Part shown: positions 20,259-48,613 of the stretch, one piece after another
Numbering within the stretch: the stretch's first letter is position 1
Layout: the number at the start of each line of letters is the position of its first letter
Source of the DNA: Myxococcales bacterium
Lineage (GTDB): Bacteria; Myxococcota; Myxococcia; Myxococcales; UBA5297
Assembly: GCA_050942745.1 (NCBI GenBank)
Contig: JBMNNX010000003.1
Location: 6,767 to 70,766, forward strand
Direction: 5' to 3'
Length of the DNA stretch: 64,000 nucleotides
Notes under the pieces: generated by a model
Told to the model about the DNA's origin: nothing
The model's input: only the letters and a program-made list of their open reading frames with translations
Databases searched by the model: none
Position numbers and translations under genes: made by a program

Positions 20259-23200
20259 TCACTTGAAGAAGCCTCCGCCGCCCTTCTTGCGCCGCATCTC
20301 GATGAGCCGCAGCTCGGTCGATGCCTCGGCGTTCTTCGGGTTGACGGCGACCGCGGCGCGGAAAAACTTCTCGGCCCTGGCGAGGTCGTTCTCGACCCGA
20401 GCCATGACGCCGAGCGTGTAGTGCGCCCGGTCGCACTCGCGGTCGAGCCGCAGCGCCTGCTCGAGCTTGGCCTTTATCTGCGGCATGTTCGAGCGCTGCG
20501 CGGGGTCGAGGTACATCGCCCAGGCCTGCATGGCGAGGTGGAGCGCCTTGTTGCTCTCGGCGAAGGCCTTGCCGAAGAGCTCGGCGGCGGCGGCGAACTC
20601 CTTCTTCTTGAGATGCAGGTCGGCCTGCTTGAGCGTCACCTCGAGGCTCGAGGCCTTGGGCGCCTGGGACTGAGACGGGGCGGCGAGCCGCATCAGGTAC
20701 ATGCTGCGCTTGGCGTCGTCGTACAGCGTCTCGTACGCCTCGGTCAGCGCGGCGAAGATGTCCTTCACCTTGGGGGTGAGGTTCGCGAGCGCCGACGGCA
20801 GGCGGTCCGGGTGGAAGACCTTCACCTGCGAGAAGTAGGCGGCCTTGACCTGCTCGCCGTTCGCTTCGCGCTGCAGGCCGAGGCGCGTGAACAGGTCCTC
20901 GCGGGCGATGCCGATGTGCCGCGCCTCGATCTTCTTGGCGAGCGCGATCTCTTCGGGGCTCAGGGTCGGCTGCTTGGCGGGCGCCGCAGGCGGCGAGGCT
21001 GCGCTCGGGGCGCTGGAAGGCTTCTCGACGACGCCGCCCTCAACAGCCGCCTGCCGCGGCAGCACGCCGAGGTTGTCGAAAGCGCGACGCAGCAGGCGCT
21101 GGCGCCGGGCGCGCACGTCCTTGGGGTCAGTCACGTCTTCACCATCGCCATAGAAGGGTTCATCCGCGGGCACGGAGAACTCGTCCTCGGGTGACAAAGC
21201 TGCATTCCAGCCGCCCTCGATAGCCGGCGGCGTCTTCGGTCTGCCCCGGTGACTGACGGCCTCGCCCTCTGGCGCCTCCATCCAGTCCTCGCCCGGGCCC
21301 TGCGTCGCAGCCGGCTGGTGCGGCGAAGGGAAGTCGCGCGGGGTCGGGGCCTCGAAGTCCGTCTTCCCTGCCATCGCTTCCAGCACCGAGGCGATTCCGC
21401 CCGGCTCAACCAGCCCGCCGCGCGACGGCTCGAACACCGGCGGCACCTCGAGGATCGGGGCGGGCGCGGGCTGCTCTGGGGTGACCGGCGGCGGCCGCAC
21501 CGGATGAAGAACGGGCGGCGCCACCGCCGGCGCGGACGGGAAGAACGGAATCGGAGGAGGCTCGAACTCCACCGAGTCGTAGTCCAGAGGCTCGTTCGAC
21601 GACCAGGACCGGTCCGCCGCGGGAACGGGCGGGGGGCACGACGGGGGCTGGTCGTCGAAGACCATGTCCATCAAGCTCGGGCCCTCGGGGGCCGCCTCGA
21701 CCGGCGACGGGATCGAAGGAGGAGTGGCGGACCCGACGACCGAGTCCCATGAGCTGACGACCGGGGGCTCGTCGATGAGCGCTGCGCCCCCCAGCTCGAT
21801 CGCCTCTTCCGGCGACAGATCGATCTCTGGGGTCGCCTCCATCTCCACTGGGCGAGGCGGCTCGGCCTCGCCGGCAGGGAGCTGAGCTGCGAGGTCGCGG
21901 GCTTGCTGCAGGCGGGCCTGGCGCTCTGCTTCGGCCGCAAGCCTGGCCGCGAAGAGGCGCTCGTACTCCTGAGGGTCCCAGGCCTCCGTCCGCTCGCCAA
22001 TCTCGCGAGCGGCGTCGAGGAGAGCCTCCTCGGAGCCATGCGCCGGGACCTCCTGCGACAGGTCCAGCTCCAGCTCGATAGGCTCGGACTCGCCCGCGGG
22101 CGCCTCTTCGATCAGATCGTCCTCGCCGAGGGCCGCCGGAGAATCGAGGCCCGAATCGAGCGAGAGCCCCGCGGTGGCGAGCTCCATCTCCTCGGCCGCG
22201 ACCGCGATGCCGGTCAGCTCCACGGACGCAGGTCCCGACGGCAAAGTGCCCGGTCGCTCGATCAGACGTTCATCAGCGAGCTGCTTCTCGAGCTGCTCTG
22301 CGCGCGCGCGCTCCTGCTCGATCTGCGCTCCGAGCGCCGCGAGCTCCGAGACAGCCGTCGCTTCGGCCGCGCCGCTGCGGCAGGCGCGCAGCGAGGCCTC
22401 CTCCGCGTCCTGGATCCTCTGCTCGAGCTCCCGCGCGCCCGCCTCCGCCTCGATCCGGGCGGCCTCGTCCTGATGCTGGGCCTGCCGCAGCGCGGCGAGC
22501 CTCTCTTCGAGCGCTCGGACCCGCTCGCGCTCCTCGCGCAGCCGCGCCTCGGCCTGGGCGCGCGCGCCTTCGATCGCCTGCGCAGATCCCGAAGCGCGAG
22601 CGAGCCGTTCGCGCTCGAGCGCCTCTTGCTCGAGCCGGCGTCGGGCCTCGTCGGCGTTCCGAAGTTGACCCTCGAGATCCCCGCGGACCTTTTCGGAGTG
22701 TGCGCGCGCCGCCTGTTCGGCCTCGCGCCGCGCCTGGGCCTCGACGATCTCGGCGGCGAGCGCGTCGGCGCGCTCGCGCTCCTCGCGCAGCTTCTCCTCG
22801 AGCTCGGCGCGCAGCGCTTCGATGATCGAACGCTGCTCTTGTTCGGCCTGCTCGCGGGCGCGCCGCTCCCTCTCTTCGGCCTCCTTCTCGAGCCGCTCGC
22901 GCAACTCGTCGGCGGCCTTCAGCTTCTCGGCGAGCTCGTCGCGGGCACGCTCGGCCTCGGCCCGCGCCGCCTCTTCGGCCTCGCGGTGGGCCTTGGCCTC
23001 CGCGATTTCGGCGGCGAGCGCCTCGGCGCGCTCGCGCTCCTCGCGCAGCTTCTCCTCGAGCTCCGCGCGCAGCGAATCGGCGCGGTCGCGCCCTTCGCCT
23101 TCGGCCTGCTCGCGGGCGCGCCGCTCCCGCTCCTCGGCCTCCTTCTCGAGCCGCTCGCGCAGCTCGTCGGCGGCCTTCAGCTTCTCGGCGAGCTCGTCGC

Positions 23201-26200
23201 GCGAACGCTCGGCCTCGGCCCGCGCCGCCTCCTCAGCCTCGCGGCGGGCCTTCGCCTCCGCGACCTCGGCGGCGAGCGCCTCGGCGCGCTCGCGCTCCTC
23301 GCGCAGCCTCTCCTCGAGCTCGGCGCGCAGCGAATCGGCGCGGTCGCGCCCTTCGCCTTCGGCCTGCTCGCGGGCGCGCCGCTCCCTCTCTTCGGCCTCC
23401 TTCTCGAGCCGCTCGCGCAGCTCGTCGGCGGCCTTCAGCTTCTCGGCGAGCTCGTCGCGCGAACGCTCGGCCTCGGCCCGCGCCGCCTCTTCCGCCTCGC
23501 GGCGGGCCTTGGCCTCCGCGACCTCGGCGGCGAGCGCATCGGCGCGCGCGCGTTCCTCGAGCAGCCTCTCCTCGAGCTCGGCGCCCAGCGCTTCTGCACT
23601 CTTGCGGCCCTCGTCCTCGGCCTGCTCGCGGGCGCGCCGCTCCCGCTCCTCGGCCTCCTGAGCGAGCCGCTCGCACGCTTCGGTGACTTGCGCGAGCTTC
23701 GCGCCCAGCTCCTCGCGCGCCTTCTCCGCCTCGGCGCGCGCGGCCTCTTCGGATTCCCGCTGCGCCGCGGCCTCGCCGCGCTCCCGGTCGAGCGCCTCGG
23801 CGCGCTCGGCCTGCTCGCGCAGCCGCACCTCGAGCTCCGCTCGGAGGTGATCGGAGCTCTGGCGCGCCTCTTCCTCTGCGCGCTCGCGCGCCTGGCGCTC
23901 CTTCTCCCGCGCCTCGGCCTCGAGCTGGCGCAGCGCCTCCTCGGCCTCGCGAACCTTCGCCTCGAGCTCCTCGCGGGCCCGCGCCGCCTCGGCGCCCGCG
24001 GCGGCGGCGGCGGCGCAGGCCTCGCGCTCCTCGGCGATCTCCGCCTCGAGCGCCTCGACCCACTCGGCCTGCTCGCGGAGCTGCTCTTCCTTCTCGGCGC
24101 GGATCTGCTCGGCGCTCTTGCGCGAGTCCTCTTCGGCCTTCTCGCGCGCCCGCTGCTCCTTCTCGCGCGCCTCCTCGAGCGCCCGCTTGCGCTGCTCGGC
24201 GAGCTCGGCCAGCCGCGCCTCGAGCCCGGCGCAGGCCTCGGCGAGCTTCGCGCGCTCCGACTCTTCGGCCTCGCGCGCGGCGATGGCCTTCTCGAGCGCG
24301 GCGTCGAGCTCTTCGACCCGCGCTCGCTCGCGGGCGATAGCCTCCTGCGCCTCGGCGCGCTGTCGCTCTTCGGCCTCGCGCAGCTCGCGGTCGCGCTGTT
24401 CCTGGCGCTCGTTCGCCGCGCGCGCCGCGTCGGCCTCTTCGCGCCGCAGCGACTCTTCGGCCTCGCGGACCTTTGCCTCGAGCTCCTCGCGCGCCCGCGC
24501 GAGCTCGCCGCGGAGCCGCTCGGCCTCGCTGCGCGCCTGCTCGAGCCCGGTGACGCGAAGCTCGAGAGCGGCAGCGCGCTCCTTCTCCCGCGCGAGCTGC
24601 TCTTCGCCCTCGAGCCGGGCCTTTTCGACGGCCTCGTGGCAAAGCTGCTCGGCGCGCTCGCGCGCCTGCTGCTCGCAAAGCTTCGACTGCTCCTCGAGCC
24701 GAGCCCGCGCTTCGGCAGCGGCGCGCACCCTGGCCTCGAGCTCGGCGCACTCCTTCTCGGCCTCGGCGCGGGCGGCCTCGTCCGCGCTCCACACCGCCTC
24801 GAGCTCGGCGCTGCGCCGCTCGAGCTCGTCGGCGCGGGCGCGCTCCTCGGCGACGAGCTGCTCGGCCGCGGCGGCGATCTCCGCGGCCTCCCTCGCGGCG
24901 CGCTCTTGCGCCTCGCAGAGGACCGCCTGAACAGCCCCGCCCTCGTCGCCGGCCTCCACGCGCTGGGCAGCCGACTGCAGCTCCTGCTCGGCCTCGCGCG
25001 CCAGCTCGAGCGCCGCGTCCCGGTCGGCCTCGGCGCGCCGGCGCGCCTCTTCTGCCCGAGCGCGCTCGGCCTCGGCGCCGGCGAGCTTCCTTTCGAGCTC
25101 GTCGGCGCGCTGGCGCTCCTCCTCGAGCCGCTCGCTTGCGCGCTGCTCGGCCTCGGCGCGGGCCGCTTCGATCAGCGCGCGCGCCTCCTGCTCGGCCTGC
25201 GCGAGCCGCTCCTCGGCGGCCCGCTGCGCCTCCGCGGCGGCCTTCTCGCGAGCCTGACGCGCCTCTTCGAGCGCCCTGTCGGCGCGCGCCTCGGCCTCGC
25301 GGCGCTCCTCCTCGAGCCGCTCGCGCTCGCGCAGCTCCTCGGCCTGACGCGCCTCCTCCTCTTCGAGCCGCGCGCACAGCTCGCCGCGGCGCCGCCGCAG
25401 CTCCTGCTCTTGGGACTGCGCCTGCGACTCGATCTCCCGGGCCAAGGCCTCCGCGGCCTCGCGCGCCTGCTGCTCGAGCTCGCGGGCGCGCCGCTCGGCC
25501 CGCTCGCGGACCTCCTCGGTCGGATCGATCGCTTCGACGCCGCCCAGCGCCATGAGCGCCGCGGCCAGCCAACGCACGCGGGCCGGGTCTACCCCGCGCT
25601 CGATGAGATCCTCGGGGCCGCCGCCCGCGCGCCAGCTCTCGAGCGCCTCGCGCTCGCGCGGCTCGAGCCGCAGCGTCGAGGCGAGCTGCGCGAAGCGGGC
25701 GCCGAGCCGCAAGACCCGCGGGCCGAGCGCGGCGAGCATCGCGGCGACGTAAGCCTGCGCGCCCGGCGACGCGAGCGCCTCGGCGATGCAGCCGTCGGCG
25801 CCGTCCGCGTCGAGCGCCAGCCCCGAGGTCCACCCCGGAGGCTCTTCGGACCGAAACTCGAAGCGCCCGTCGGCAAGGCGCCCCAGCGCGCGCAGGTGCT
25901 CGAAGAGCTGCAGCCGCATCCCCTCGCGCACCCCGTCCTCGTCGAGCGCGCCCATCTCGCAGAGCACCTCGGGCAGCGGCCTGCCGCGCTCGAGCTGCGG
26001 CAGCGCGCGATCGAGGGTCTCGAGATCGATGAGCCCGCTCTGGACGAGCACCTGGCCGAGCGGGCGGAAGCCGACCGCGACGCGCGCGCCCGCCGGCACG
26101 CCCTGGCGCATGAAGAGCCGGCTGGTGCCGCCGCTCCCGTCGATGCGCAGCACGCCCGTCGCGCCGCGCTCTCGGGCGGACAGCAATAGCTCGGCGAGCG

Positions 26201-26249
26201 GGTGCTCGCTCAGCCGTCCGTGGGAAAGTTCAGGGTCGCCGGGGCGCAT
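20259..26249 (-). CDS. giant DUF4388/PATAN - coiled-coil - Pro-rich - J-domain - TPR protein (1996 aa)
   Basis: N-terminus LSEHPLAELLLSARERGATGVLRIDG...LFMRQGVPAGA (PATAN-like). About 1000 aa of E/A/R/L heptad-rich sequence containing 86-aa repeats. Pro-rich segment. J domain with HPD (YFSQVKVFHPDRL...EAYETLYDDAKR). TPR-like C-terminus. Confidence 0.85.
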   Translation of the reverse strand: MRPGDPELSHGRLSEHPLAELLLSARERGATGVLRIDGSGGTSRLFMRQGVPAGARVAVGFRPLGQVLVQSGLIDLETLDRALPQLERGRPLPEVLCEMGALDEDGVREGMRLQLFEHLRALGRLADGRFEFRSEEPPGWTSGLALDADGADGCIAEALASPGAQAYVAAMLAALGPRVLRLGARFAQLASTLRLEPREREALESWRAGGGPEDLIERGVDPARVRWLAAALMALGGVEAIDPTEEVRERAERRARELEQQAREAAEALAREIESQAQSQEQELRRRRGELCARLEEEEARQAEELRERERLEEERREAEARADRALEEARQAREKAAAEAQRAAEERLAQAEQEARALIEAARAEAEQRASERLEEERQRADELERKLAGAEAERARAEEARRRAEADRDAALELAREAEQELQSAAQRVEAGDEGGAVQAVLCEAQERAAREAAEIAAAAEQLVAEERARADELERRSAELEAVWSADEAARAEAEKECAELEARVRAAAEARARLEEQSKLCEQQARERAEQLCHEAVEKARLEGEEQLAREKERAAALELRVTGLEQARSEAERLRGELARAREELEAKVREAEESLRREEADAARAANERQEQRDRELREAEERQRAEAQEAIARERARVEELDAALEKAIAAREAEESERAKLAEACAGLEARLAELAEQRKRALEEAREKEQRAREKAEEDSRKSAEQIRAEKEEQLREQAEWVEALEAEIAEEREACAAAAAAGAEAARAREELEAKVREAEEALRQLEAEAREKERQARERAEEEARQSSDHLRAELEVRLREQAERAEALDRERGEAAAQRESEEAARAEAEKAREELGAKLAQVTEACERLAQEAEERERRAREQAEDEGRKSAEALGAELEERLLEERARADALAAEVAEAKARREAEEAARAEAERSRDELAEKLKAADELRERLEKEAEERERRAREQAEGEGRDRADSLRAELEERLREERERAEALAAEVAEAKARREAEEAARAEAERSRDELAEKLKAADELRERLEKEAEERERRAREQAEGEGRDRADSLRAELEEKLREERERAEALAAEIAEAKAHREAEEAARAEAERARDELAEKLKAADELRERLEKEAEERERRAREQAEQEQRSIIEALRAELEEKLREERERADALAAEIVEAQARREAEQAARAHSEKVRGDLEGQLRNADEARRRLEQEALERERLARASGSAQAIEGARAQAEARLREERERVRALEERLAALRQAQHQDEAARIEAEAGARELEQRIQDAEEASLRACRSGAAEATAVSELAALGAQIEQERARAEQLEKQLADERLIERPGTLPSGPASVELTGIAVAAEEMELATAGLSLDSGLDSPAALGEDDLIEEAPAGESEPIELELDLSQEVPAHGSEEALLDAAREIGERTEAWDPQEYERLFAARLAAEAERQARLQQARDLAAQLPAGEAEPPRPVEMEATPEIDLSPEEAIELGGAALIDEPPVVSSWDSVVGSATPPSIPSPVEAAPEGPSLMDMVFDDQPPSCPPPVPAADRSWSSNEPLDYDSVEFEPPPIPFFPSAPAVAPPVLHPVRPPPVTPEQPAPAPILEVPPVFEPSRGGLVEPGGIASVLEAMAGKTDFEAPTPRDFPSPHQPAATQGPGEDWMEAPEGEAVSHRGRPKTPPAIEGGWNAALSPEDEFSVPADEPFYGDGEDVTDPKDVRARRQRLLRRAFDNLGVLPRQAAVEGGVVEKPSSAPSAASPPAAPAKQPTLSPEEIALAKKIEARHIGIAREDLFTRLGLQREANGEQVKAAYFSQVKVFHPDRLPSALANLTPKVKDIFAALTEAYETLYDDAKRSMYLMRLAAPSQSQAPKASSLEVTLKQADLHLKKKEFAAAAELFGKAFAESNKALHLAMQAWAMYLDPAQRSNMPQIKAKLEQALRLDRECDRAHYTLGVMARVENDLARAEKFFRAAVAVNPKNAEASTELRLIEMRRKKGGGGFFK
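22845..23618 (-). repeat. three near-identical 258-bp (86-aa) tandem repeats inside the coiled-coil gene
   Basis: The GGCCTGCTCGCGGGCGCGCCGCTCC unit recurs at 22845, 23103, 23361 and 23619. The protein unit is RRAREQAEGEGRDRADSLRAELEERLREERERAEALAAEVAEAKARREAEEAARAEAERSRDELAEKLKAADELRERLEKEAEERE. More diverged copies flank it over roughly 22.5-25.4 kb. Confidence 0.85.
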
Positions 26250-42214: not shown

Positions 42215-43516
42215 CTAGAACGGGACCTCGTCGTCGCCCGGCTCGACAGGCTCGGCCGAGACCTCGCCGTCGTCCGACCCCGGCTCGCGCAGCGGCAGCG
42301 ACACCTGGCCGGACGGCCAGTCCGGAGCCATGGTCGCCTCGGCGGGCACCACGTACCACTGTCGGCCCCGTACCTGCTGGCGCTTGAGCAGGCCTTCGCG
42401 CTCCATCGCCTCGAGCATCTTCGAGAAGGTCGAGAAGCCGTGCTCGCGCTCGTCGAAGTCCGGCTCCTTGCGGACGATCGCCTCCTTGAGCAGCGACGGG
42501 TTCAAAGGCCCGGTGGCGTGGGCGAGCAAGCTCGAGACGACGTCCCGAGCGATGGGAGGCACGCTCGGCTCGCCGGTGCCCCGCCTCCTGCCTCCTCTCG
42601 GTTGCTTCGCCGGCTCTTTCGAAACCTCCTCGGCTTGCTCGGCTTGCTCGGCCGCGGCGCCGGTGGACGCGGCGGGCTTCTTGGCCGCGGCGCCGGCGGT
42701 CGCGGCGGGCTTCTTGGCCGCGGCACCGGCGGAGGCGGCGGGCTTCTTGGCCGCGGCACCGGCGGAGGCGGCGGGCTTCTTGGCCGTGGCGCCGGCGGTC
42801 GCGGCGGGCTCCTTGGCCGCGGCTCTCCTGCCGGACCCCTTGGGCTCGGCCTGCTTCTTCGCGCCCTTCTTCTCGGGCGCCGCCTCCGGCGCCGGCGCGA
42901 CCGCCGCGTCCCCCCGGGCAACCGGCTCTTCGACGGGTACCGCTCGCGCGATGGCCGCCGCGCTCCTGGCGAGCCGCCGCTCCTCGGTCTCCTCGGCGTC
43001 CGCCTTGCGACCGCCGCGCCTCGGCCGGTGCGCGGCCTCCTCGCCCCGGCCAGCGCCCGCCTTCAGGTAGATGAACTCGTCGCAGGCCCTGACGAAGAGC
43101 CGCGAGGTCGCCTCGCGCACGCCGATGCCGATGACCTGGCGGTCGTTCTCGCGCAGCTTGTAGGCGAGCGGGCAAAAGTCGCTGTCGCCCGAGGCGATGA
43201 CGAAGGTGTCGATGAACTCGCGCGCGTAGCAGAGCTCGAGCGCGTCGATGACCAGGCGCATATCCGCGCCGTTCTTGCCCGTGCGCGTCGAGGGCGGCAC
43301 GTCGATGAGCTCGACGCCCATCTCGTGCAGGTGCGCCTTGGCCTCGCGAAAGCGCGACCAGTCGGCGTAGGCGCGCCGGTAGATGACCTTTCCCTTCTCG
43401 AGCAGGCGATCGACGGCAGGCTGGAGGTCGAAGCTCGCCGCGGTGATTCCGGTGTTGGTGACCAGGTTCTCGAAGTCGAGAAAGAGGGCGATTCGGCGCT
43501 GATTTTCTTTGGTCAA
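42215..43516 (-). CDS. NYN (LabA-like) nuclease domain - AKKPA repeat - OST-HTH/LOTUS domain protein
   Basis: TTG at 43516 with a GGAG 5 nt upstream. IALFLDFENL...GKNGADMRLVIDA...FVIASGDSDFCPLAYKLRE (NYN/LabA). Five 12-aa repeats A(A/T)AKKPAA(S/T)AGA. C-terminal LLKEAIVRKEPDFDEREHGFSTFSKMLEAMEREGLL (LOTUS-like). Confidence 0.75.
   Translation of the reverse strand: MTKENQRRIALFLDFENLVTNTGITAASFDLQPAVDRLLEKGKVIYRRAYADWSRFREAKAHLHEMGVELIDVPPSTRTGKNGADMRLVIDALELCYAREFIDTFVIASGDSDFCPLAYKLRENDRQVIGIGVREATSRLFVRACDEFIYLKAGAGRGEEAAHRPRRGGRKADAEETEERRLARSAAAIARAVPVEEPVARGDAAVAPAPEAAPEKKGAKKQAEPKGSGRRAAAKEPAATAGATAKKPAASAGAAAKKPAASAGAAAKKPAATAGAAAKKPAASTGAAAEQAEQAEEVSKEPAKQPRGGRRRGTGEPSVPPIARDVVSSLLAHATGPLNPSLLKEAIVRKEPDFDEREHGFSTFSKMLEAMEREGLLKRQQVRGRQWYVVPAEATMAPDWPSGQVSLPLREPGSDDGEVSAEPVEPGDDEVPF
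42650..42829 (-). repeat. 5 x 36-bp tandem repeat (encodes AAKKPAA[ST]AGA units)
   Basis: GGCCGCGGC.CCGGCGG.GGCGGCGGGCTTCTT repeated head to tail inside the NYN-LOTUS gene. Confidence 0.85.
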
Positions 43517-44227
43517 AGGTGCTCCGCGAGGCGCAAGGGCAGGCAACTGCTTGTTTGGTTGCCAACACGCTACCCGATCGGCGAGTGCCGCGCGCCTCTT
43601 CCTTTTGGATCTGTCAACCGGCGCCGCTCCCCGTTTCGTCCTGAGTCCGGCCGCCGCCCGCTCGCCGGGCGCCACCGCCGCGCTACCGGGGGCGCCCCCG
43701 GTGCCGGCGTATCCCTCGCCTCGGCGAATCCGCGCGGCAGGCCTTGAAACATCGACCTCGCGCGCCGCGCCGCGAGCGGCGCCACGTCCTTCGGGCCGGG
43801 CAGAGCGAACATCCGGGGTCCTCAGGACTTCGGCGCGGCGGCCGGCTCTCTCGGCTTCGGCCGGCCGCCGCGCTGGGCGGAGGCCCGAGGGGACCGGAAC
43901 CGGCCGGTCCCGACGGCCGCCGCATATACGAAACGCCGTGCTCAAGGGCCTTCGTCCGGCGCTCTCGCCAGCCGGTCGCGCCGGAGCGCGGCTGCGCTCG
44001 CCTCTGCTGCGAGCGCGGCCGCCGTCGCGGCTCCGAATCCCTTGGCGCTTGAGCCGCCGCGGCCGTGCTGTCCGTGCTTTCACCGGACATGCCACCGCGC
44101 GCGGCCGCAGGCCGCTAACCCGGCCGAAAGCCCCGCGCCCCGGCGAGCGAGGGGAAAGCCGTTACCGTCCCGAAGAATCGAAAGGGCCCAGGGATCCCCG
44201 GAGGCCGGACAACCGGGCGGCTCGACT

Positions 44228-44596
44228 TCAAGCGTCGAAGTGGCGCCGCTGGGGAGGCGCCCCCGGCTCCTCGGCGCCATTTGCCCCGTCCGACTCGGCG
44301 AGCGCGCCCGGCGCCGCCCCCGGCTGTCGGTCCGTACCCTCGCCGGCGCGCATGAGGCGGGCGCTCGTGCGCGCGGCGAGATAGCTGAAGGTGGCGGCCG
44401 CAAACCTCCAGACCGCGACTCCGGAGAGGCCGACGGCCACGAGGCCAATGAGCGTGCCCTGGAAAAGATCGAAGGGCAGCGCCCGGGACAGCATCCAGCC
44501 GAATCCCAGGCCAAGCCCCACGAGGCCCCCGGCGAGCACCAGGACGCTGATCAGCCCGGCGAGGATGATGAGGGCGCCGCCGAGAATGCGCTTCAT
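44228..44596 (-). CDS. small membrane protein (3 predicted TM helices)
   Basis: ATG at 44596. MKRILGGALIILAGLISVLVLAGGLVGLGLGFGWML...LIGLVAVGLSGVAVW, followed by a disordered acidic tail. Confidence 0.5.
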   Translation of the reverse strand: MKRILGGALIILAGLISVLVLAGGLVGLGLGFGWMLSRALPFDLFQGTLIGLVAVGLSGVAVWRFAAATFSYLAARTSARLMRAGEGTDRQPGAAPGALAESDGANGAEEPGAPPQRRHFDA

Positions 44597-44976
44597 GTCC
44601 GCCTCCGCATCCCGGTGGGCCGGGTGCGCCCACACAATCAGGGGCGCGCTGATCATGTCAAGGCGCCCGTGAGAGCCGCCCCGCTGGGAAATCGCCCGGC
44701 CGGATGAGGCGCGTCAGAGGCCCGGTCCTTCACGGGCGCCGAGCGCGGGCCGACGAACGGGCGCCCGACGACGAGGATTGAGGGCCCGGTGGGCCGCCGG
44801 TGCGGCTTCCGACGCCTGCTTCCTCCACAGCCGGCCAGCGAGGCGCGTTCCCAGTTGCATCACACCGGACATTCGCGGCGGAAGGAGGCCAGATCCCGAT
44901 AGGTTACAAGGATCTGCTTGATTCGAGCCATCGCTTCCCCTAGCTATGCCCGCCCCCAAGGGGCGGAGGACAGGTC

Positions 44977-47070
44977 GTGTACAAGGACTTCACCAGACTA
45001 CGCAACATCGGCATCTCGGCGCACATCGACAGCGGAAAGACCACGCTGACTGAGCGGAGCCTGTTCTACACGAACCGCATCCACGCCATCCACGAGGTCA
45101 AGGGCAAGGACGGCGTCGGGGCCACCATGGACTCGATGGATCTCGAGCGCGAGCGCGGGATCACCATCGCCAGCGCGGCCACGCACGCCCAATGGGCGGG
45201 CTACCACCTGAACATCATCGACACCCCGGGGCACGTCGACTTCACCATCGAGGTCGAGCGCGCCCTGCGCGTGCTCGACGGCGCGGTGCTCGTGCTCTGC
45301 GCGGTCGCCGGCGTCCAGAGCCAGTCGCTGACGGTGGACCGCCAGATGCGCCGCTACAACGTCCCGCGCATCGCCTTCATCAACAAGTGCGACCGCGTCG
45401 GCGCCAACCCGCTGCGCGTCAAGGAGCAGCTCCGCGAGAAGCTCGGCCACAACCCCGTGCTGCTCCAGCTCCCCATCGGCCTGGAGGACAAGTTCGAGGG
45501 CATCGTCGACCTGGTCGAGATGAAGGCCCGGCGCTTCGAGGGCAAGAGCGGCGAGACCGTCGTCGACGGCCCTATCCCCGAGCACATGCTCGAGCAGGCG
45601 CGCGCCGCGCGCGAGGAGATGCTCGACGCGGTCTCGATGTTCAGCGACGAGCTGACCGAGGCCATCCTCGAGGACCGCGTCACCGAGGAGCTCATCCACA
45701 GCGCCATCCGCAAGGGCACCATCAGCCTGAAGCTGACCCCGGTGCTGATGGGCTCGGCCTACAAGAACAAGGGCGTCCAGAAGCTGCTCGACGCGGTGGT
45801 CGCCTACCTGCCCGACCCGACCGAGGTCGTGAACAAGGCGGTCGACCTCGACCACGACGAGGCCGAGGTGATCACCGAGACGAACATCGAAAAGCCCACC
45901 GTCGCCCTGGCCTTCAAGCTCGAGGACGGCCGCTACGGGCAGCTCACCTACCTGCGCGTCTATCAGGGCAAGCTGTCTCGCGACGCGTTCATCACCAACA
46001 CGCGCACCCGCAAGCAGCACAAGGTCGGCCGCCTGGTGCGCATGCACTCCGACAAGATGGAAGACATCGACGAGGCGGGCGCGGGCGACATCGTCGCGAT
46101 GTTCGGCATCGAGTGCAATTCGGGCGACACCTTCACCGACGGCACCATCAACGTGGCCATGACCTCGATGCACGTGCCCGAGCCGGTCATCTCGCTGTCG
46201 GTCAAGCCGGTCGACCAGAAGTCCGAAGCCAACATGTCCAAGGCGCTGCGCCGCTTCTCGCGCGAGGACCCGACCTTCCGCGTCGGCATCGACGAGGAGT
46301 CCGGCGAGACGATCATCCGCGGCATGGGCGAGCTGCACCTCGACATCTACATCGAGCGCATGAAGCGCGAGTACAACACCATCGTCGAGACCTCGGCCCC
46401 CGAGGTCGCCTACCGCGAGACCATCAGCCGGCGCGCGGACTTCAACTACACGCACAAGAAGCAGACCGGCGGCGCGGGCCAGTACGGCCGGGTGGCCGGC
46501 TACATCGAGCCGTGCGAGGAGCACGAGTTCGAGTTCGTCGACGAGATCGTCGGCGGCGTCATCCCTCGGCAGTTCATCCCCTCGTGCGAGAAGGGCTTCC
46601 GCTCCCAGCTCAGCAAGGGCCGCAAGCTCGGCTACCCGGTCGTCAACGTCCGGGTGGTGATCAACGACGGCGCCTTCCACGCGGTCGACAGCTCGGACAT
46701 CGCCTTCCAGGAGGCCGCCCGCGGCGCCTGGCGCGAGGCGTTCGACCGGGCCCAGCCGAAGATCCTCGAGCCGATCATGCGGGTCGTCGTGGAGGGCCCC
46801 AGCGAGTTCTCGGGCGCCGTCCTCGCCACCATGATGCAGCGGCGCGGAATGATAGTGGGCACGCAGGAGGACGGCCTGCTGGCGCGCATCGAAGCCGAAG
46901 TTCCGCTCGCCGAAATGTTCGGTTACGCCACGACGCTGCGTTCGGCGACGCAGGGCAAGGCCGAGTTCACCATGGAGTTCTCCCGCTACCTGCCGGTCCC
47001 GGCGGCCATCGCCGAGGAGCTGGTCAAGAAGGCGCAGGAGAAGCAAAAGGCCCTGGCGGGCAAGAAGTAA
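44977..47070 (+). CDS. fusA: elongation factor G (mitochondrial EF-G1 / spd-type)
   Basis: GTG start with a GGAGGA upstream. [58 protein letters not shown]. 697 aa. Not located in an rpsL-rpsG-fusA-tuf context. Confidence 0.95.
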
Positions 47071-47080
47071 GGAGCGCGAA

Positions 47081-48373
47081 ATGTACCGCAAAGAAGTCAA
47101 TGCGCAGAGCCCGCTACGCATCCTCGATAAGTCGATTCGCGGCGGGTTGGGCAAGGGTAACCTCGGGGTCGTGATGGCCCGCGCAGGCGTCGGCAAGACC
47201 GCCTTCCTCATCCAGAACGGCCTCGACGACCTGATGCGCGAGCGGGACGTGCTGCACGTCTCCATCGGCCAGTCGGTCGAGTACGTGAGCGCCTGGTACG
47301 ACGCACTCTTCGACGACCTGGCGGCCCGCACGAACCTGCAGGACCGCGAAGGGGTTCGCAGCTCCATCGCCCGTCACCGGATCATCAAGACCTTCCCCGA
47401 GGGCGTCTTCAGCCCGAAGAAGCTCGAAGAGACGCTCGAGCTGTTCGAGAAGCACATGGGCATGAAGCCCCAGGCGATCCTCATCGACGGCTTCTCGTGG
47501 AAGGGGCCCAAGGTCGCCGAGGAGGTGGCCGCGCTCAAGGCCATCGCCCAGCGCGCCAGCGCCGAGCTGTGGCTCACCGCGATCACGCCGCGCGAGCTGG
47601 CCGGCAGCGAGCCGCCCGCCGTGCGCCCGCCGTGCGACGTGTGCCGCGAGCTCATCGACGTCGCGCTCTTCCTGCAGCCGCAGGGCAGCCACGTCGATGT
47701 CCAGCTCGTCAAGGACCACGACAACCCGACGCCCGAGGCGACCATCCTCCAGCTCCACCCGGAGACGATGCGCCTGGTGGCCGAGGGCGAGATCGCAATC
47801 CCCGCGCGCCTGCCGGCCCGCAGCTACACGCTGCTGTCGGGCGGCGCGAACGGGGCCGAGGCCGAGTTCGGCGCCTGCGCCGAGCGCTGGGGGCTGAGCG
47901 AGGTGAACTACACCTTCGCCGGCCGCGGCGCGGGGCATCGCTCCCGCGGGATGGTCGAGCTCTCCGAGGTCGAGCTGATGCTCGGCGACGTCAGCTCGGC
48001 CTACCTCAAGGCCCACATGCACCGGACCTACCCGGACACCCCGACCTTCAAGAAGGTGCTTCAGTCGATCTGGCACCAGGTCAATACCGCCGGCGAGGTC
48101 TTCCACGTCGGGCTCGTCCAGGAAGACGGCACCGCGCGCGGCGGAACCGGCTGGGCCGTCGAGCTCGCCAAGCACTGGGGCAAGCCCGTCCACGTTTTCG
48201 ATCAGGAGAAGAACGCCTGGTTCACTTGGAAGGACGGCGCCTGGGCGCCCGAGGAGGCCCCGGTCATCACCCGCGAGCGCTTCACCGGGACCGGCACGCG
48301 CTTCCTGAGCGACCAGGGACGCGCCGCCATCCGCGCGCTGTTCGAGCGCTCGTTCGGGGCGCCCAGACACTAG
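47081..48373 (+). CDS. fusion protein: RecA-superfamily (KaiC/DnaB-C/RadA-like) P-loop ATPase + SLOG/DprA-like Rossmann domain
   Basis: The AAGGAG RBS overlaps the fusA stop, with a 10-nt gap to the ATG. Walker A LGKGNLGVVMARAGVGKTAF and Walker B QAILIDGF. C-terminal domain SGGANGAEAEFGACAERWG ... GGTGWAVELAKHWGKPVHVF, a pattern seen in DprA/DUF2493/YpsA-type SLOG domains. Confidence 0.7.
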   Translation: MYRKEVNAQSPLRILDKSIRGGLGKGNLGVVMARAGVGKTAFLIQNGLDDLMRERDVLHVSIGQSVEYVSAWYDALFDDLAARTNLQDREGVRSSIARHRIIKTFPEGVFSPKKLEETLELFEKHMGMKPQAILIDGFSWKGPKVAEEVAALKAIAQRASAELWLTAITPRELAGSEPPAVRPPCDVCRELIDVALFLQPQGSHVDVQLVKDHDNPTPEATILQLHPETMRLVAEGEIAIPARLPARSYTLLSGGANGAEAEFGACAERWGLSEVNYTFAGRGAGHRSRGMVELSEVELMLGDVSSAYLKAHMHRTYPDTPTFKKVLQSIWHQVNTAGEVFHVGLVQEDGTARGGTGWAVELAKHWGKPVHVFDQEKNAWFTWKDGAWAPEEAPVITRERFTGTGTRFLSDQGRAAIRALFERSFGAPRH

Positions 48374-48399
48374 CGACGCTTCGACAGCCGAAGGCCAAG

Positions 48400-48441
48400 A
48401 CGGCCGCGCCTGCTCAGTCAGGCGCGGCCGTTTCTTTTTCC
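48400..48441 (+). terminator. canonical Rho-independent terminator
   Basis: 13-bp perfect stem ACGGCCGCGCCTG / CAGGCGCGGCCGT with loop CTCAGT, followed by TTTCTTTTTCCC. Lies 27 nt after the stop at 48373. Confidence 0.8.
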
Positions 48442-48613
48442 CTTCTCGACGCGAGGCCGCTGCCGCGGAGGCGCGGCGGGCGCGGTCCGCCGTTCGTCGA
48501 GGGGGCGGGTCGTTTCCGGAAGGGCACCTCTCCTCTGAAGGGGTCATGCCCCGGAGGAGTGCTCGCCTTACCTCGTGGCCAGACTCGACACGCTTTTCGA
48601 AAGGAGACGGACG

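Follow-up and report, generated by a model that had tools for sequence, protein, structure and literature searches.

FusB-type proteins bind elongation factor G (EF-G), and the fungal ATPase eEF3 acts together with eEF2. Among the EF-G paralogues of bacteria, the defining mark of the spdEFG1 subfamily is an insertion of three residues, consensus KDG, in switch I (Margus et al. 2011, PMC3150367); spdEFG1 and its mitochondrial relative mtEFG1 are translocation specialists, found as pairs with the recycling paralogues spdEFG2 and mtEFG2 (PMC3150367; Atkinson 2015, PMC4342817). YpsA-like domains of the SLOG class also occur in viruses, where they are now and then joined with HNH and helicase domains (PMC9503650). 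Here we analyze a stretch of 64,000 nucleotides from a Myxococcales bacterium (contig JBMNNX010000003.1, positions 6,767 to 70,766 of the forward strand), below called the window, whose own coordinates are used throughout. Its fusA gene, encoding an EF-G, is directly followed by a gene for a 430-aa protein, here called the partner, which joins a RecA-like ATPase domain to a probable SLOG domain. The conservation of this gene pair makes it likely that the partner is a dedicated functional partner of the adjoining EF-G.

The fusA gene (44977..47070, plus strand, GTG start) encodes a protein of 697 aa that matches TIGR00484 with 977 bits and contains all five EF-G Pfam domains. The three-residue KDG insertion that defines spdEFG1 is present in its switch I, and in a phmmer search against the PDB mitochondrial EF-G1 scored highest (783 bits vs 661 for the Thermus and 644 for the E. 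coli EF-G). Judged by these features the protein is spdEFG1, the mitochondrial EF-G1 type, which bears out the assignment proposed in an earlier sequence-only reading of the window. The partner open reading frame (ORF; 47081..48373, plus strand, ATG start) begins after a gap of 10 nt from the fusA stop codon (TAA, 47068-47070), and its Shine-Dalgarno sequence AAGGAG (47069..47074, plus strand), 6 nt 5' of the ATG, shares the two final bases of that stop. The overlapping junction described in the sequence-only reading is thus found where that reading had placed it, and all the peptides quoted there occur in the translations.

When one genome per species was scanned, at least 551 genomes proved to have relatives of the partner, and linkage was analysed in the 80 best loci. 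These loci belong to Myxococcota (Anaeromyxobacter, Haliangium, Kofleriaceae, Polyangia, Nannocystineae, and Bradymonadales), to Acidobacteriota (Vicinamibacterales, UBA6911, and Marinacidobacterales), and to some metagenome-assembled genomes (MAGs) labelled otherwise, and their partner proteins are from 92 down to 40% identical to that of the window. An EF-G gene on the same strand, whose product is 60-93% identical to the window EF-G, lies immediately 5' of the partner gene in all 78 loci of this set that extend far enough upstream. Similarly, 34 further loci came from metagenomes scanned with the most distant of the full-length members as seeds; in these the N domain is only 29-54% identical to the best of three reference N domains, and EF-G again precedes the partner in 33 of 33 testable cases. 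Where the sources name these distant members, they are Myxococcota. The absence of linkage to fusA in related genomes had been named beforehand as an outcome that would count against the proposed coupling; linkage is present in every testable locus. The EF-G involved is always of one type, the three-residue insertion in switch I being found in 89 of 89 linked EF-Gs, which are all those with the N-terminus inside the locus.

Every locus examined, in both phyla, has one copy of the partner, in the same position beside EF-G. The distance from stop to start has a median of 15 nt over 115 loci and does not exceed 30 nt in 91 of them, several loci showing 4-nt overlaps. When the ORFs of 83 loci were clustered, no other neighbour was common to more than seven of them, and hence the conserved unit consists of exactly EF-G and the partner. 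Translation-related genes occur sporadically 3' of the pair, namely smpB-sspB-rnhA in locus L001 (7441-8971) and the PTH2 peptidyl-tRNA hydrolase gene in L168 (7491-7895). The apparent exceptions to linkage were rejected: frameshifts in long-read assemblies account for L025, L057, L066, L068, and L079, and a mobile element inserted in EF-G accounts for L039. The pair is also present in five MAGs (L055, L063, L070, L072, and L073) labelled 'uncultured Rickettsiales', with partner identities of 46-51%; these labels, if true, would be notable in view of the affinity of spdEFG1 to the mitochondrial protein. An exact-sequence look-up of the Haliangium ochraceum locus returned no record.

The association with EF-G also persists where the architecture of the partner has changed. 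In L149 (3989-7637) the two halves are encoded on either side of fusA, a 186-aa gene product with the C domain only being followed by an EF-G of the KDG type and then by a 235-aa product with the N domain only. A stand-alone C-domain gene likewise precedes EF-G in L129, whose contig ends within EF-G, and in L169 (4001-6810, Ca. Polarisedimenticolia) EF-G is followed by a gene for a 233-aa protein consisting of the N domain, with no SLOG domain within 4 kb. The opposite rearrangement is represented by fusion proteins of 732-739 aa, found on 17 contigs of the ENA and JGI collections and forming four clusters with 68-100% mutual identity. They consist of the first ~295 residues of EF-G (G and G'), an acidic linker, and the complete ATPase-SLOG protein. 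The G/G' part is 46-49% identical to the window EF-G, and NKCD is retained in it, as are the SAxK region and the G' subdomain. It has no P-loop lysine, GSS, GAS, or GCS standing in place of GKT; it lacks switch I together with RGITI; and it reads GTVGP instead of DTPGH. Judging from these substitutions, the fused G domain is a dead GTPase. The fusion gene is monocistronic, and up to a distance of 7 kb no full-length EF-G accompanies it. At the fusion loci (L163-L166; proteins P0152, P0385, P0386, and P0387) genes for cytochrome c and FeoB adjoin, and L165 lies a few kb from genes of a contractile injection system.

The invariant adjacency in the face of reshuffled flanks, the survival of linkage when the partner is split, and the fusion to G/G' together indicate that the two products work together. 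Neither the split and fused forms nor the missing catalytic glutamate of the ATPase domain (see below) had been noticed in the sequence-only reading. Most simply, the two products would form a complex involving the G/G' domain of EF-G, and the partner probably binds the EF-G G domain. The role suggested in the sequence-only reading, detection or alteration of a nucleotide signal connected with translation, is likewise hypothetical. In a specific form of the complex proposed here, the partner would dock on the G/G' domain of EF-G1, its P-loop would hold ATP, and its SLOG pocket would take a second ligand, so that nucleotide status would be coupled to the availability of EF-G1 or to the ribosomal cycle. 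We regard such tuning of EF-G1 by an ATP switch and a SLOG pocket as rather doubtful in this exact form. Stated more generally, the partner could be a novel lineage-specific translation factor, an obligate partner of EF-G1 in Myxococcota and Acidobacteriota that binds G/G', acts at the factor-binding site of the ribosome, and either gates EF-G1 by a nucleotide signal or processes RNA or a nucleotide; this we put forward tentatively, as somewhat short of an even case. The overall explanation, in which the role of the partner and the levels of mechanism are taken jointly, appears to us evenly balanced between right and wrong.

The N-terminal half of the partner (aa 1-240; 47081..47800, plus strand) is a RecA-like P-loop domain of the DnaB/KaiC/RadA class. 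An AlphaFold2 model of the full-length protein, built from 40 homologues, has a predicted local distance difference test (pLDDT) score of 84.5, and its N domain matches KaiC, T4 gp41, DnaB, and RAD51 paralogues in a Foldseek search of the PDB (E ~1e-11). The family profile, compared with PDB sequences, finds T4 gp41 (E 1e-8), KaiC (1e-5), and RadA (7e-5). These matches substantiate the KaiC/DnaB/RadA-like N-terminal half proposed from the sequence. Pfam and NCBIfam gave sub-threshold matches to KaiC, DnaB_C, AAA_25, GvpD, and RadA (11-19 bits vs cut-offs of 24-600) and detected none of the accessory domains of these proteins, that is, double KaiC lobes, a DnaB N-terminal domain, a RadA zinc finger with KNRFG, or a Lon domain. 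By its sequence, the partner thus belongs to the wider RecA-like class and not to the KaiC, DnaB, or RadA families proper.

In the Walker A motif ARAGVGKT (aa 33-40; 47177..47200, plus strand) and the Walker B motif AILIDGF (aa 132-138; 47474..47494, plus strand), residues K39 and D136 are invariant in the alignments. Examination of the hidden Markov model (HMM) alignment with gp41 revealed one specific difference: opposite VLYISMEMAEE of gp41 the window protein has VLHVSIGQSVE, which places Gly63 (47267..47269, plus strand) at the canonical position of the catalytic glutamate, E227 of gp41, whose mutation served to stall the T4 primosome. Of 40 close homologues, 37 have Gly here; in distant ones the residue varies. 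Without the canonical catalytic Glu, the N domain is less likely to be a fast motor than a module for ATP-dependent switching or assembly, and it probably binds ATP with hydrolysis that is weak or conditional. Mean column identity across the 40 homologues is 60%, and conservation of this kind indicates that the partner is under strong purifying selection.

The C-terminal half (aa 241-430 and stop; 47801..48373, plus strand) is not covered by any Pfam model. Its first glycine-rich loop, SGGANGAE (aa 253-260; 47837..47860, plus strand), conforms to the domain-wide motif GGAxGA[DE], and in the second, GGTGWAVE (aa 354-361; 48140..48163, plus strand), GGTG is invariant across the domain family. 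The core that is invariant over diverse relatives consists of GGAxGA[DE], GGTGW, FDQ, and GxGTR. The sequence-only reading had assigned this half to the SLOG/DprA-like domains, and the searches support the assignment in part. In its favour, PHROG 768, a 'DprA-like DNA recombination-mediator protein', matches the C domain of the window with E 3e-6 and its stand-alone relatives with 5e-17. Sub-threshold Pfam matches among 21 diverse relatives are to cpYpsA in eight (best E 2e-4), YAcAr in five, DprA in four, and Nuc_deoxyrib_tr (nucleoside 2-deoxyribosyltransferase) in three; they come from the relatives and never from the window protein. Against it, Pfam and NCBIfam gave no match to the C-terminal half of the window protein, DNA_processg_A included, and two alignment profiles of the domain found nothing among PDB sequences even at E <= 10. 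As no DNA_processg_A match was obtained for the window protein, assignment to the DprA family proper was rejected.

Structural comparison gave a similarly divided picture. Since the full-length Foldseek search was swamped by the N domain, the C domain was modelled separately with AlphaFold2 (pLDDT 80.9, predicted template modelling score 0.79); the model shows the alternating strands and helices of a Rossmannoid fold. In the PDB, Foldseek found for it at best generic Rossmann dehydrogenases of the short-chain dehydrogenase/reductase type (E 0.03), with no SLOG entry in the top 50. Strong matches were obtained in BFVD (E 1e-12 to 2e-8, template modelling scores 0.57-0.80, with 0.78-0.80 for phage domains) to domains within giant proteins of crAss-like phages, to a 'DNA 3'-5' helicase', and to a 185-aa Agrobacterium phage protein. 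Viral models of DprA-like and molybdenum cofactor (MoCo) carrier proteins were borderline (E 0.02-0.05, probability 0.4-0.94). It is probable, though not proven, that the C-terminal half represents a distinct branch of the SLOG (TIR-DrHyd-SLOG) class outside any Pfam model. The invariant pocket motifs GGAxGA[DE], GGTGW..E, FDQ, and GxGTR predict binding of a nucleotide, a nucleotide derivative, or single-stranded nucleic acid, and the domain possibly also processes this ligand.

A profile search of 1.84 billion representatives (E <= 1e-3) found the C domain in at least 2199 representative clusters, in proteins ranging from stand-alone forms of ~185 aa to those of 2800-4900 aa. The domain therefore merits a family definition of its own, with giant phage proteins among its members and no Pfam model to cover it. 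The giant proteins that contain it (P0250, P0254, P0256, P0265-P0268, and P0270; 2800-4900 aa) are, like P0269 (628 aa), encoded by low-GC DNA; one HNH match and several weak D5_N matches were seen in the giant proteins, and their equivalents in BFVD are crAss-like phage proteins. No neighbour of the stand-alone C-domain genes is common to more than 5 of 46 loci.

In the window itself, the third codon positions of fusA and of the partner ORF have G+C fractions of 0.97 and 0.94, which in DNA of 70% G+C marks both as real genes. An intrinsic terminator (48398..48443, plus strand) follows the partner gene. Its stem (48398-48433) has 15 pairs, 11 of them G-C, and a 6-nt loop, and is followed by the T-rich tail CTTTTTCCCT; the fold has a stability of -43.9 kcal/mol (z = -3.85), which none of 200 shuffled sequences reached. 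The region contains three terminator-like elements where 2.2 are expected, so that the class as a whole is not enriched, and the one at 48398 is much stronger than the other two. The two-gene unit closed by a strong terminator, as described in the sequence-only reading, is thus found here with a stem measured at 15 bp. On the other side, the nearest gene 5' of fusA (44228-44656) is divergent, on the opposite strand, and the neighbours of the pair in the window encode a TreT-like glycosyltransferase, a NYN/LOTUS protein, a small membrane protein, a lipoprotein, and an S9 peptidase. This set of neighbours and the divergent upstream gene show a self-contained unit, and fusA lies outside a str operon, in line with the earlier reading. 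The fusA and partner genes are predicted to be transcribed as one two-gene operon, and translation of the partner is probably coupled to that of fusA. No sigma-70-like promoter consensus occurs 5' of or within fusA, a negative that is uninformative in this phylum, and no Rfam family reached the gathering score over the whole window, so that no leader or riboswitch was seen.

Elsewhere in the window, the 626-aa NYN/LOTUS protein (42215-44095, minus strand) has a long Ala/Lys-rich tandem repeat, AAKKPAA[ST]AGA..., between its NYN and OST-HTH/LOTUS domains, which recalls histone-H1-like tails. An ORF of 1996 aa (20259-26249, minus strand) has a third-position G+C fraction of 0.90 and appears coding-like.

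Gene adjacency may in principle be an accident of descent with no functional coupling, and since most loci come from related lineages of Myxococcota and Acidobacteriota, shared ancestry inflates the linkage counts. Yet both flanks are fully reshuffled while the pair stays intact even at ~30% partner identity, the gaps are operon-like, and independent rearrangements, the split forms and the fusion, keep the association, all of which leaves an accident strongly disfavoured. Just as improbable is the view that the partner serves in conflict or anti-phage signalling through its SLOG domain and lies beside fusA by chance. SLOG domains are indeed found repeatedly in conflict systems and among phage counter-defences (PMC9503650), and the C domain is shared with phage proteins; the partner, however, has no match in PADLOC and no conserved effector-like or toxin-like neighbour, and its fixed single-copy position by a core translation gene in two phyla, at ~60% identity, is unlike that of patchy, island-borne defence genes. 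The association with conflict systems to which the sequence-only reading had drawn attention therefore finds no support at this locus, and both explanations were rejected on the grounds of conservation, the PADLOC result, reshuffled flanks, and split and fused forms. A role in DNA recombination, repair, or replication requires more attention. The partner would then be a RadA/DnaB-like ATPase with a built-in DprA-like loader, sharing the fusA transcript for growth co-regulation only and having no direct role in translation. The best relatives of its N-terminal half (T4 gp41, DnaB, RadA, and RAD51 paralogues) fit this explanation, as do the match of the C-terminal half to PHROG 768 and the phage homologues of that half, which occur in proteins named helicases or having HNH or D5_N-like matches. 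Cooperation of DprA with RecA is established biology. On the other hand, not one DNA-metabolism gene is conserved nearby in the 83 loci, the helicase catalytic Glu is absent, Pfam and NCBIfam detect no RadA zinc finger or Lon, DnaB N-terminal, or DprA accessory domain, and the linkage to EF-G is kept where the two halves of the partner flank fusA as separate genes; an in-frame fusion to the G domain of EF-G also makes passive co-regulation an inadequate account. We therefore hold a purely DNA-directed partner to be quite unlikely.

An explanation closer to translation, which we consider unlikely as well, is that EF-G, or the fused pseudo-G domain, brings the ATP-dependent partner to the factor-binding site of the ribosome, where the SLOG domain would bind or process a nucleotide in mRNA, tRNA, or rRNA without regulating EF-G. 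The fused G/G' domain, with its GTP-binding residues lost and G' kept, would suit a targeting module, G' of EF-G being the part that contacts the L7/L12 stalk. The many invariant polar residues of the C domain would fit this explanation, and smpB in L001 and PTH2 in L168 occasionally lie 3' of the pair, but such genes are not conserved over the 83 loci. SLOG enzymes of the LOG clade cleave N-glycosidic bonds of AMP-type substrates, tRNA included (PMC9503650), whereas the C domain is closer to the YpsA/DprA-like clades. Binding of RNA by it would be purely hypothetical, and the ATPase appears catalytically weakened.

Several observations also weigh against a dedicated partner of EF-G1. Gene order and fusions show functional coupling, and not mechanism or physical interaction with EF-G; a slow ATPase, the nature of the ligand, and any effect on translation are all predictions from sequence and context. 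Pfam gives the SLOG assignment only below threshold, and comparison with solved structures does not bring it back. The closest characterised relatives of both domains (replicative helicases, RadA, and DprA) act in DNA metabolism, and in phages homologues of the C domain belong to giant proteins of the helicase, HNH, and primase-like kinds. Walker A is degenerate in a minority of family members. The C domain itself is not specific to translation, since 44 of its 46 stand-alone loci have no EF-G nearby, the exceptions being the split forms L129 and L149. An insert of ~2.4 kb breaks up the linked EF-G gene in L039 (1887-4354; Ca. Marinacidobacterales chromosome OZ253507.1) and, by translation alone, contains an IS-type transposase-like ORF, an ORF with an SPPY methyltransferase-like motif, and a further endonuclease-like ORF of 256 aa; if the interruption is real, spdEFG1 may be dispensable in this organism, but it may also be a population variant or an assembly artefact. 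Finally, at the one Planctomycetaceae EF-G locus the contig ends 27 nt past the EF-G stop, so that presence of the partner is not readable.

If the partner is indeed dedicated to EF-G1, the consequences would reach beyond this group of bacteria. EF-G is among the best-studied proteins, and the standard models give it no dedicated protein partner; binding of the partner to EF-G1 or to the ribosome would make it a new kind of elongation accessory factor. As spdEFG1 is the bacterial sister of mitochondrial EF-G1, it would represent a layer of elongation control without a counterpart in the E. coli and Thermus models, and the SLOG class would gain a housekeeping role beyond conflict systems. It also offers a hypothesis for the persistence of the spd-type EF-G pair alongside canonical EF-G or in place of it. 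The prediction is testable in cultivable carriers of the pair, for example Anaeromyxobacter and Haliangium ochraceum. What is new here is the combination of known domain classes in an undescribed architecture and context, coupled to a core translation factor. The sequence-only reading knew of no described function for the fusion, and no description of an ATPase-SLOG fusion or of its coupling to EF-G was found in the searchable literature, a scope outside which the founding SLOG paper (Burroughs et al. 2015) falls.

In comparison with described systems, the window EF-G resembles spdEFG1 and mitochondrial EF-G1 in the KDG insertion, in its location outside the str operon, and in being closest to the mitochondrial protein. 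The partner gene was not reported in the studies of spdEFG1 (PMC3150367, PMC4342817); the context method of the former used E. coli orthologues only and thus could not have detected it. The N-terminal half shares with the superfamily 4 helicase core of DnaB, T4 gp41, KaiC, and RadA the fold, Walker A (GxGK[TS]), and Walker B (hhhhDG). It differs from these proteins in being a single 240-aa core without their accessory domains or a second KaiC lobe, in having Gly63 instead of the catalytic Glu (E227 in gp41, SLE in DnaB, and EE in KaiC), and in its genomic setting, which is translation and not replication or the clock.

The C-terminal half has in common with the SLOG domains (YpsA, cpYpsA, YAcAr, and DprA-like, PHROG 768) a Rossmannoid beta-alpha-beta core and two Gly-rich loops, the first of them after strand 1, and like the viral SLOG domains (PMC9503650) it occurs also as a stand-alone protein and inside large phage proteins. 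It departs from the superfamily in an insert of its own, RxRG...Y..HMHR...IWHQV, a W-rich beta-hairpin, and a C-terminal GTGTR, and neither a RecA-like fusion partner nor a link with EF-G has been described there. The nearest described kind is the computationally defined phage SLOG domains fused to helicase-type NTPases (PMC9503650). By analogy of role, the partner can be compared with FusB-type EF-G-binding proteins and with eEF3, which are lineage-restricted accessory proteins of the EF-G/eEF2 cycle, eEF3 being an ATPase as well; their folds are unrelated to that of the partner, which in addition is genomically locked to one EF-G paralogue.

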